From a virus (Duplodnaviria; Heunggongvirae; Uroviricota; Caudoviricetes): a stretch of 46,456 nt of DNA. Shown here one piece after another: positions 7,885 to 9,349 of this stretch. The stretch lies in IMG/VR virus record IMGVR_UViG_2563366990_000004, one strand, 5' to 3'. Below the pieces are notes generated by a model that was not told where the DNA came from, ran no database searches, and was given only the letters and a program-made list of their open reading frames with translations. The position numbers were made by a program, and so were the translations under genes. The stretch's first letter is position 1. Every line of letters begins with the position of its first letter.

Positions 7885-8895
7885 ATGGCCGCATTACCAT
7901 ACATGCAACTGTACATAGCTGATTACCTGGCTGACACCATGCATTTGTCCGCAGAGGAGCACGGTGCGTATTTGTTGCTGATGTTCAATTACTGGCAAAC
8001 AGGGAAACCAATACCTAAAAACAGGCTGGCAAAAATTTCCCGTCTGACTAACGAGCGATGGGCTGATGTGGAACCATCCTTGCGGGAGTTTTTTTGCGAT
8101 AACGGCGATGAATGGGTGCATCTTCGGATTGAGGAAGATCTGGCATCAGTCAGGGAAAAATTGACCAAAAAATCAGCCGCCGGAAAAGCATCTGTTCAGG
8201 CCAGAAGAAGCAGAAAGGAAGTATATGTTCAAACAAAACAAGAGAGAGATTTAACAGGTGTTCAAACAAATGTTGGTGTTGTGTTTGAACATGACGCAAA
8301 CACAAAAGCAACTAATAAAGATACAGATCTAAAAGAATTAAACCCCACACATAACGTGCGTGAACGCGAGAGTATTCCGACCAGTGAGTTGCATGGTGCG
8401 CCGTTGCAGACAGCCGAACCTGAATACCTGGACGGCCTGAGCGAACCGATCGGGAAATTTTCGATGACCACTGTCTGGCAGCCGTCGCCGGATTTTCGAC
8501 AACGGGCAGCAGTGTGGGGTATGGCTCTGCCTGAGCCGGAATTTACACCTGCTGAGCTTGCCGCATTCCGGGATTACTGGATGGCGGAGGGGAAGGTTTT
8601 CACACAGGTTCAGTGGGAGCAGAAATTTGCCCGCCACGTGCAGCACGTCAGGGCACAGGTAAAACCAGTCAGCAAGGGGGTAAGCCATGCAGCATCAGGT
8701 GGCACGGCATCACGGGCAATTCAGGAAATCCGGGCAGCACGCGAACAGTGGGAACGAGACAACGGATTTATCAGCAACGGAAACGGCCTGGAAGCTGTGG
8801 GAGCTTATGGGGGAGGTGTATTCGAACCGCTGGACTCAGAAGAACGGGGCCGCACCTTCGAAGCTCTGGATTGCCCAGATTGGCGCGATGACTGA
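7885..8895 (+). CDS. Replication initiation protein, DUF1376/YdaU-like (functional analogue of lambda O)
   Basis: N-terminal MAALPYMQLYIADYLADTMHLSAEEHGAYLLLMFNYWQTGKPIP is the YdaU/DUF1376 signature; ATG 7885 has a GAGG RBS (track ORF starts at TTG 7831). AT-rich iteron cluster lies inside the gene. Confidence 0.7.
   Translation: MAALPYMQLYIADYLADTMHLSAEEHGAYLLLMFNYWQTGKPIPKNRLAKISRLTNERWADVEPSLREFFCDNGDEWVHLRIEEDLASVREKLTKKSAAGKASVQARRSRKEVYVQTKQERDLTGVQTNVGVVFEHDANTKATNKDTDLKELNPTHNVRERESIPTSELHGAPLQTAEPEYLDGLSEPIGKFSMTTVWQPSPDFRQRAAVWGMALPEPEFTPAELAAFRDYWMAEGKVFTQVQWEQKFARHVQHVRAQVKPVSKGVSHAASGGTASRAIQEIRAAREQWERDNGFISNGNGLEAVGAYGGGVFEPLDSEERGRTFEALDCPDWRDD
8224..8340. repeat. Candidate origin of replication: iterons plus AT-rich stretch inside the initiator gene
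   Basis: GTTCAAACAAA twice in direct orientation and an inverted copy TGTTTGAACA, followed by AACTAATAAAGATACAGATCTAAAAGAATTAAAC; matches the lambda arrangement of ori iterons within O. Confidence 0.5.
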
Positions 8896-9349
8896 ACAGC
8901 AAATCCGGCTGGTCTGCCGTCAGTGCATGGACCGCTGCCGGGCGGGTGAAACGTGGCCCCCGGACCTGGCTGAGTTTGTTGCGCTGATTTCGGGGAGTGG
9001 GGCAAATCCATTTGGTCTTACGGTGGATGCCGTGATGGAAGAGTACCGGCGCTGGCGCAATGAATCCTGGCGATACGACGGGAGTGATAAATACCCGTGG
9101 CCACAGCCTGTGCTGTACCACATCTGCCTCGAAATGCGTACCAGAGGGATTGAGCGCCAGATGACGCAGGGTGAGTTAAAACGACTTGCGGAACGGCAAC
9201 TGACGAAATGGGCAAAGCATGTTGGTAACGGGATGAGTGTTCCGCCAGTGCGACGACAACTGGAAGGGGCGAAACACCCGCAAGGGCCAACGCCAATTGA
9301 ACGGCTGAAACAGGAATACGAACGCCGGAAGGCAGCTGGTTTTATTTGA
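8687..9349 (+). CDS. Lambda-P-like replication protein (helicase loader)
   Basis: 220 aa; …TWPPDLAEFVALI…VMEEYRRWRNESWRYDGSDKYPWPQPVLYHICLEMR… parallels lambda P (…PFLPSPGQFVAWCRE…VYEYCRKRGLYPDAESYPWKSNAHYWLVTNLYQNMR…). ATG 8687 has a strong RBS (AAGGGGG); overlaps the O-like gene by ~200 nt in another frame. Confidence 0.7.
   Translation: MQHQVARHHGQFRKSGQHANSGNETTDLSATETAWKLWELMGEVYSNRWTQKNGAAPSKLWIAQIGAMTEQQIRLVCRQCMDRCRAGETWPPDLAEFVALISGSGANPFGLTVDAVMEEYRRWRNESWRYDGSDKYPWPQPVLYHICLEMRTRGIERQMTQGELKRLAERQLTKWAKHVGNGMSVPPVRRQLEGAKHPQGPTPIERLKQEYERRKAAGFI

Follow-up and report, generated by a model that had tools for sequence, protein, structure and literature searches.

In phage lambda, the replication origin lies within the initiator gene O, whose product has a DNA-binding domain at its N terminus and a part recruiting the helicase loader P at its C terminus; the origin occupies the codons of the linker joining the two. 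Repeated initiator sites (four 19-bp iterons in lambda ori) are followed by an AT-rich unwinding element, the gene for P lies immediately downstream, the gene order is repressor, cro, initiator, and loader, and the module is a mosaic in which the N-terminal domain with its sites forms one part and the C-terminal part with P the other. The same plan recurs in a 46,456-nucleotide (nt) stretch of Caudoviricetes DNA, IMG/VR record IMGVR_UViG_2563366990_000004 (called the window below), whose open reading frame (ORF) list and Pfam matches mark the early-right operon of a lambdoid or Rac-like Escherichia coli prophage. This system is a variant of the known O/P/ori scheme built from other parts. The N-terminal domain of its initiator is DUF1376/YdaU rather than Phage_rep_O, its middle domain resembles DnaT instead of the lambda O C-terminal domain, and three 10-bp sites stand in place of the lambda iterons. 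The initiator gene and the lambda P-family gene also overlap by 209 nt in different frames, compared with 4 to 17 nt in lambda-type O/P pairs (L039 to L047). Sequence comparison indicates that this overlap is genuine and ancient and that neither sequencing error nor chance accounts for it.

Other described systems resemble parts of this module. The first 148 amino acids (aa) of the initiator are 94% identical to YdaU of the E. coli K-12 Rac prophage, and ydaS- and ydaT-like genes lie upstream in both. Past an 11-nt box described below, however, YdaU is unrelated and lacks both the DnaT domain and the C-terminal tail, while its partner YdaV is an IstB/DnaC-like AAA+ protein rather than P, encoded 6 nt away without overlap. 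E. coli DnaT, paired with DnaC, has a C-terminal single-stranded DNA (ssDNA)-binding domain homologous to the middle domain of the initiator (E value, 1e-27), and each is encoded just upstream of a helicase-loader gene. DnaT differs in having another N-terminal domain, a role in PriA-dependent restart, and no origin. The DnaT-type domain is here an interchangeable piece of a phage initiator, as some relatives replace it yet keep the tail. A precedent for overlapping genes with interacting products is the lambda spanin pair Rz/Rz1, which is encoded on the same strand in different frames, with Rz1 wholly inside Rz, and acts in lysis. As in that pair, the overlap here would link interacting partners genetically, but it is a partial tail-on-head overlap, and the physical interaction is putative.

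An earlier note, made from the letters of the window alone, had pointed to O-like and P-like genes overlapping by about 200 nt in different frames, with an initiator frame open to 8895 and a strong ribosome-binding site and ATG for the P-like gene at 8687. Both features are in the sequence. The initiator frame is open from a TTG at 7831 to the TGA at 8893 to 8895, with the start common to all homologues at ATG 7885, and RefSeq annotates both ends identically. The P frame becomes open at 8684, just behind a TAA (8681 to 8683), and ends with the stop codon at 9347 to 9349. To place the overlap in context, 43 loci were collected from one-genome-per-species contigs, of which 28 showed the arrangement of the window. 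These 28 came from about 18 genera of Enterobacterales, including Escherichia, Citrobacter, Enterobacter, Klebsiella, Salmonella, Pectobacterium, Serratia, Rahnella, Erwinia, Rouxiella, and Limnobaculum, with P identity down to 42%. A subset of 19 representatives had pairwise P identities below 80%.

The relative frame of initiator and P (P in +1) was identical in all 28 loci, and in each the upstream ORF ended 35 to 83 nt past the RW..KNG motif of P (68 to 83 nt in all but L024). Counted from the first P-frame ATG, the overlap measured 182 to 242 nt, except in L025, where the P frame is open much further upstream; counted from the ATG with a Shine-Dalgarno (SD) sequence, it measured about 170 to 230 nt. 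Every one of the 19 representatives had an SD sequence (GGAGG, GAGG, or GGGG) plus ATG at the aligned position, a pair visible in the initiator alignment as a conserved "GG..[N/H]A" island amid variable linker.

Selection in the overlap was assessed against a randomization null in which P amino acids were fixed and codons were redrawn from local codon usage, with a mirror test that treated the initiator likewise. Across the 19 representatives, codon periodicity followed the initiator frame in 8707 to 8760, where third positions are free, and the P frame in 8786 to 8895. With P codons randomized, the initiator frame reached its observed stop without interruption in about 21% of trials per locus, or 1.6e-13 as a product over the 19 loci, a figure that overstates independence given that the representatives are related. 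In the gap-free block from W35 to A67 of P, pairwise identity in the initiator frame was 0.339 compared to 0.266 ± 0.008 expected (z, 8.9), the net acidic charge was 4.3 compared to 0.4 (z, 7.5), and stops per sequence numbered 0.05 compared to 1.28. Synonymous differences at pairs sharing the P residue were 0.537 in this block compared to 0.644 expected. A control P block of the same length beyond the overlap gave z values of 0.6 and 1.1, with synonymous differences of 0.621 compared to 0.654. In the mirror test over the initiator helix block, P-frame identity was 0.233 compared to 0.172 (z, 6.9), with a z of 2.9 for the DnaT-domain control; the P leader appears only mildly constrained, with a recurring R/K-S-G-Q-P motif.

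These comparisons show purifying selection in both frames of the overlap, divided between two segments. In 8707 to 8760 the more constrained frame is that of the initiator helix, lying over the disordered leader of P, and in 8786 to 8895 that of the P helices, lying over the disordered tail of the initiator. In the structural models of the two proteins, the ordered segment of each frame thus faces the disordered segment of the other.

The concern raised in the earlier note, that the overlap might hide a frameshift or an earlier true stop, can be weighed against the same data. A sequencing frameshift or decayed prophage, with an earlier initiator end or a frameshift fusion of initiator and P, is scarcely credible. 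Single database entries do join DUF1376 to P (P0106, 333 aa) or P to DUF1627 (P0034, 291 aa), but these fused entries are singletons and most likely represent assembly errors or frameshift mutations rather than a programmed product. The right-hand module was matched in 1,844 of 5,426 complete E. coli genomes (the exact combination of this window in 197 of the 5,426), and the arrangement is present in 28 other loci. When homologues were aligned, the initiator did not end well before 8687 in relatives; the tail is present in all full-length homologues (53 to 69% identity), and selection signatures occur in both frames. The conserved SD and ATG, the nearly invariant P residues upstream of alternative starts, and the open, acidic initiator frame all argue for a genuine overlap. 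No earlier description of it was found in the limited literature searched, and a paper on non-lambdoid Stx-phage replication units makes no mention of DnaT, DUF1376, iterons, or overlaps.

The length of the overlap depends on where P begins, and public records disagree. In E. coli, RefSeq/PGAP starts P at the equivalent of 8888, giving 153 aa and an 8-nt ATGACTGA overlap, and the records of phage Rac-SA53 and phage vB_Apl-pPE4 use the same 153-aa form. Stx/PPompW records have a later start still (140 aa), and RefSeq entries in other genera start at the equivalent of 8807 (about 180 aa). P proteins of 216 to 223 aa occur in many automatically called entries, with homologues of this length found down to 50% identity. 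The overlap is therefore latent in databases, yet it is not the accepted annotation. The record of the Actinobacillus phage vB_Apl-pPE4 (PP818812.1; L049) has a replication module 87% identical in nucleotides to the E. coli window, a match unexpected for a Pasteurellaceae phage that suggests either an enterobacterial origin of the sequence or a mislabeled host.

If RefSeq were right for E. coli, P would start at ATG 8888 with a short coupling overlap, and the open frame upstream would be a by-product of the initiator sequence. Besides its use by PGAP and two phage records, this start has in its favor that ATGA-type stop-start overlaps are common, the short overlaps of L039 to L047 being examples. 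Also, with initiator amino acids kept, the P frame from 8687 to 8786, upstream of W35, would stay free of stops by chance alone in about 65% of trials at each locus. Because this open-frame test is weak, the case for the 8687 start rests on the conserved SD and ATG and on the conservation of residues ahead of the other proposed starts. When 26 homologues with identities down to 46% were aligned, R48, W49, K52, N53, G54, P57, and W61 were nearly invariant and W38 invariant, with third-position wobble in the P frame, whereas the proposed start residue, Met68, is M, L, F, or C in relatives. A start at 8888 would also leave the SD and ATG kept in all representatives without a role, and its 153-aa product would be missing what corresponds to domain I of lambda P, together with half of domain II. 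We consider the 8888 start very unlikely.

A start at ATG 8807 (Met41), as RefSeq annotates in Salmonella, Citrobacter, Klebsiella, and Enterobacter, would leave a real overlap of 89 nt and a P of 180 aa. Met41 is present in 18 of 19 representatives with GGGAG just upstream, many database entries are 177 to 181 aa long, and residues 1 to 28 of the long form are disordered and variable. However, the GGGAG-to-ATG spacing is merely 3 nt, L021 and L022 have Leu and no ATG at this position, and the conserved SD and ATG at 8687 would go unexplained. W35 and W38 are conserved upstream of Met41, and the TGG at 8798 to 8800 is invariant though changes at its last two bases would be silent or conservative in the initiator frame. 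The leader is also somewhat constrained, as the mirror test indicated. The Erwinia orphan P genes, which have no upstream initiator (L030 and L037), still start ahead of the W.LW motif. On this evidence 8807 is unlikely to be the main start, and a minor internal isoform from it is possible. The start at 8687 is best supported, and the shorter public annotations are probably truncations that drop conserved residues.

The two orphan genes are intact P-family genes with their own SD sequences, at 3492 to 4118 in L030 (Erwinia sp. CGal63) and 3507 to 4076 in L037 (Erwinia sp. MMLR14_017). Each stands alone among ordinary host genes, and no initiator or other phage gene lies near either of them. 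Judged from translations, with no search, the flanking ORFs are TtcA-like and DEAD-box helicase-like in L030 and PTS-transporter-like and LysR-type regulator-like in L037. These genes may be domesticated remnants of helicase loaders.

P belongs to the lambda P family. The ORF matches Phage_lambda_P (PF06992) over aa 59 to 187 with 57.2 bits (cutoff, 26), and it matches the solved lambda P structure (8v9t chain V; E value, 1.4e-6), with profile positions 73 to 190 falling on lambda P residues 85 to 203. Its structural model (mean predicted local distance difference test [pLDDT], 70) has residues 1 to 28 disordered, helices at 25 to 53, 59 to 66, 70 to 85, and 94 to 103 at moderate confidence, further helices at 113 to 180 and 203 to 216, and a confident C-terminal half. 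Lambda P consists of a disordered N-terminal lasso (residues 1 to 29), domain II (30 to 119), domain III (120 to 192), and a C-terminal lasso (PMC12661323). As modeled, the 220-aa protein would fit this plan.

From its N terminus, the initiator comprises the DUF1376/YdaU domain, a disordered linker, the DnaT-type ssDNA-binding domain, a short helix with conserved sequence, and a disordered tail of acidic character. In the AlphaFold model the DUF1376 domain is helical with a small sheet (pLDDT, 70 to 75), the linker is disordered from aa 118 to 177, and the DnaT-type domain spans aa 180 to 258 (pLDDT, 79 to 89). This last domain matches solved DnaT structures 6aep, 4ou6, and 9zbt with E values of 1e-26 to 1e-27. 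The S.A.QQ.IRAAR motif of the tail helix is conserved, with the codon periodicity of the initiator frame. In E. coli and Citrobacter, a number of DUF1376 initiators (P0133 to P0137, P0145, and P0227) are about 70 aa longer (404 to 429 aa) and have nuclease-like domains, PF10544 (T5orf172) and PF13455 (MUG113), inserted in or fused to them. They may reflect an insertion of the homing-endonuclease type.

The helix and acidic tail of the initiator accompany this P subfamily across very different upstream sequences. With the same P subfamily downstream, the tail (SD/ATG island, helix, and acidic end) follows DnaT-type domains, unrelated middle regions (L021 to L024, L028, and L029), a lambda-O N-terminal-domain protein (L020), and a lambda-O C-terminal domain (L038). 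The lambda-type O/P pairs with short overlaps are without such a tail, and K-12 YdaU lacks both tail and P. Because of this association, we infer that the tail is a docking element for this P subfamily. The authors of the lambda P structure speculated that the N-terminal lassos of P engage O, for whose C-terminal domain they had no density (PMC12661323). Here, the region of P equivalent to the lambda N-terminal lasso is written on the same bases as the initiator tail region.

An alternative accepts the overlap but takes the last ~36 initiator residues for functionless read-through, and the repeats at 8226 to 8291 for a coding repeat or the operator of a regulator. The tail is predicted to be disordered, and much of its conservation is forced by P; for example, EPLDxEER in the initiator and NRWTQKN in P are encoded by the same bases. 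Against this, the initiator tail is kept open, conserved, and acidic beyond what the P sequence forces. The second half of the alternative bears on the origin, where the direct repeats encode VQT twice and no DnaA box (up to 2 mismatches) or IHF consensus was found between 8100 and 8450. However, the third copy is inverted, which argues against a peptide repeat. Family-specific repeats and an AT-rich run occur at the same place in other initiator types, including lambda-like iterons in L020, and Rac, which has the same sites, has been reported to have an active origin, oriJ (PMC3945230). Taken together, this alternative is improbable.

The earlier note had described two direct copies and one inverted copy of a repeat inside the initiator gene, next to an AT-rich stretch, as the lambda ori arrangement. 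The repeats and the AT-rich stretch are present (Table 1), and comparison with relatives agrees with that interpretation. All three sites fit TGTTYRAACA exactly, and each is a near-palindrome, TGTT-YR-AACA, so that only the two bases at the center distinguish "direct" from "inverted" copies. The direct repeat extends to TGTTCAAACAAA (8226 to 8237 and 8259 to 8270), and the 16-nt arms at 8225 to 8240 and 8277 to 8292 are 94% complementary. Three exact matches fall within 66 bp, with one other in the 46-kb window, where about 0.15 would be expected; the Poisson probability of at least 3 in 161 nt, using the local A-rich composition, is about 1e-10. The sites encode aa 114 to 136, and the AT-rich stretch continues to aa 153, placing all but the first site within the disordered linker. 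In K-12 Rac ydaU the three sites and their 33- and 23-bp spacings are the same, and the AT-rich runs agree as far as GATCTAAAA. PMC11014345 cites a paper on an oriJ plasmid. In the literature searched for the map position of oriJ and for a function of ydaU or DUF1376, the only statements found were that oriJ is active and that ydaUVW are uncharacterized.

Where the N-terminal domain differs, relatives have different repeats at the corresponding place, 0.42 to 0.53 of the way through the ORF. L020, which has a Phage_rep_O N-terminal domain, carries four lambda-like TATCCCCGAAAACAGGGA repeats there; L023 carries three copies of CGACCGTTCAACG; L026, L031, and L033 carry four to five copies of GTAACGC; and L024 carries many copies of CGTCACG. 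In each of these six loci, a purine-rich AT run comes after the repeats, together with the box GATCTAAAAGA(T/A)AAACCCC, and purine-rich AT runs occupy relative positions 0.42 to 0.53 of the initiator ORF in many relatives. Because repeats covary with the type of N-terminal domain, we infer that the DUF1376 domain is the origin-binding domain. Clustered sites, an adjoining AT-rich stretch, a location in the linker, and repeats that vary with the DNA-binding domain are the marks of a lambdoid origin, and all of them can be recognized here. The putative origin very probably lies within the initiator gene, as in lambda, a placement well supported by the comparison.

The box GATCTAAAAGA, which includes a Dam site, is common to initiators with unrelated N-terminal domains. 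Exact copies occur in 7 of 29 initiator ORFs, those of the window and of 6 of the 28 loci (L010 at 3137, L012 at 3161, L020 at 3164, L025 at 3083, L026 at 3080, and L034 at 3224), and 9 more have one or two mismatches, always at the same relative position. The trailing (T/A)AAACCCC is usual, and the flanks are otherwise unalignable. The central codon of the box has the form NTA without exception (CTA for Leu, ATA for Ile, or GTA for Val), and such codons are rare in these genes (CTA makes up 7% of Leu codons), which points to a constraint at the DNA level. Similarity to K-12 Rac stops at 8328, and similarity to O157-type initiators begins at 8315/8332, so both breakpoints fall on the box. The box may serve as a recombination joint, as part of the unwinding element, or as both. 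Origin-specificity and loader-specificity modules would be joined inside the initiator gene, following a lambda-like logic.

In the mechanism we propose, the N-terminal domain would bind the three TGTTYRAACA sites in the linker-coding DNA, and the AT- and purine-rich element behind them, ending in GATCTAAAAGA, would unwind. The box would be the joint between a left module (N-terminal domain and its own sites) and a right module (loader-recruiting part and P), and the helix and acidic end of the initiator tail would recruit P. With the tail overprinted on the N terminus of P, recombination could not part the two partners. P would be translated from its own SD sequence within the initiator message, so that translation of the initiator may also set the level of P. 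The whole account, a Rac-like lambdoid prophage module on the lambda O/ori/P plan with different parts and with P starting at 8687, is likely to be correct. A further idea, offered tentatively and with some doubt, is that the 209-nt overlap is a portable adapter encoding both halves of the initiator-loader contact, helix and acidic tail on one side and lasso and first helices on the other.

Several points weigh against this account, in addition to the relatedness of the representatives. The controls carry a small residual signal (z, 0.6 to 2.9), and the randomization null, which preserves amino acids and codon usage, disregards dinucleotide context and mRNA structure. The N-terminal half of the P model is only moderate (pLDDT, 60 to 68), and shorter P isoforms are possible, from Met41 or by re-initiation at Met68 through ATGACTGA. 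The box also encodes a conserved peptide, D-L-K-D/E, making a constraint at the protein level possible, and the three-site region is no more than a candidate for oriJ. The protein ends given here are predicted ones, and origin firing and a contact between tail and P are putative.

The surroundings of the module fit an early-right operon (Table 1). The promoter-like site between the repressor gene and the cro/YdaS-like gene is likely the early-right promoter, and its transcript would run through the replication genes. Scans for promoters and terminators found nothing above shuffled expectation inside the replication module, and Rfam found no RNA family between 7800 and 9400. To the left of the repressor gene, in the immunity region, a 119-aa ORF (6179 to 6538, plus strand) looks HigA/antitoxin-like with a helix-turn-helix, a label given by eye from the translation with no Pfam scan. 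Elsewhere in the window, Rfam matches above the gathering score were DicF antisense RNA (5149 to 5200, minus strand), sok antitoxin RNA (13916 to 14088, plus strand), and two tandem STnc100 small RNAs (20587 to 20796 and 21073 to 21285, plus strand). The sok match implies a hok-type toxin locus.

Table 1. Features of the replication module and adjoining genes, with positions in the window
Feature	Position	Strand	Remarks
Divergent repressor gene	6585-6983	-
Promoter-like site, TTGAAA-17-AATCAT, with TG	7046-7074	+	Consensus scan only; between repressor gene and cro/YdaS-like gene
Cro/YdaS-like gene	7104-7364
YdaT-like gene	7361-7798
Initiator gene, 336 aa	7885-8895	+	ORF
DUF1376 (YdaU) domain, aa 5-87	7897-8145	+	Pfam PF07120, 91.4 bits (cutoff, 30.1)
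Putative initiator-binding site 1, TGTTCAAACA	8226-8235		Also present in K-12 Rac ydaU
Putative initiator-binding site 2, TGTTCAAACA	8259-8268		Spaced 33 bp from site 1; also present in K-12 Rac ydaU
Putative initiator-binding site 3, TGTTTGAACA	8282-8291		Opposite orientation; spaced 23 bp from site 2; also present in K-12 Rac ydaU
AT-rich stretch, GC 0.28	8282-8341		Purine-rich on top strand; putative DNA-unwinding element; GC 0.55-0.6 downstream
Box GATCTAAAAGA	8326-8336		With Dam site; shared by initiators with unrelated N-terminal domains
DnaT-type ssDNA-binding domain, aa 192-258	8458-8658	+	Pfam PF17948, 62.6 bits (cutoff, 25)
P Shine-Dalgarno sequence, AAGGGGG	8674-8680	+	6-nt spacer to ATG 8687; encoded by Lys-Gly-Val codons of the initiator linker
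Lambda P-family helicase-loader gene, 220 aa full length	8687-9349	+	ORF
Dual-coding overlap, 209 nt	8687-8895	+	Initiator aa 268-336 and P aa 1-70; P in +1 frame
Initiator tail helix, aa 277-292, SRAIQEIRAAREQWER	8713-8760	+	Overlaps disordered N-terminal leader of P; pLDDT ~74
Acidic disordered C-terminal tail, initiator aa 297-336	8773-8892	+	Over P aa 30-69 (first helices); pLDDT 31-36
Met41 ATG	8807-8809	+	RefSeq P start in other genera (~180-aa form); judged not the main start
Met68 ATG	8888-8890	+	RefSeq/PGAP P start in E. coli (153-aa form); judged a truncated annotation
DUF1627 gene	9365-10099		After P-like gene

Although this module is very common in E. coli prophages, its loader gene has been annotated with four different starts, yielding 140, 153, ~180, or ~220 aa, and the evidence favors the longest. 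To our knowledge, bacteria and their phages have few long same-strand dual-coding regions that are conserved across genera, and the one described here joins two proteins whose work requires them to come together at the origin. The box shared at the joint of the modules provides a concrete site for mosaic exchange of origin-specificity and loader-specificity modules. The hand-over of the helicase-loader complex by a lambda-type initiator is structurally unresolved (PMC12661323), and this family supplies a short, well-delimited tail with which to approach it. If the adapter idea is true, an initiator recombining at GATCTAAAAGA or just upstream of the P start would gain a matching docking peptide together with its loader. 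Overprinting would then hard-wire the co-inheritance of an interacting pair, and the tail would offer a defined peptide for the contact between initiator and loader.

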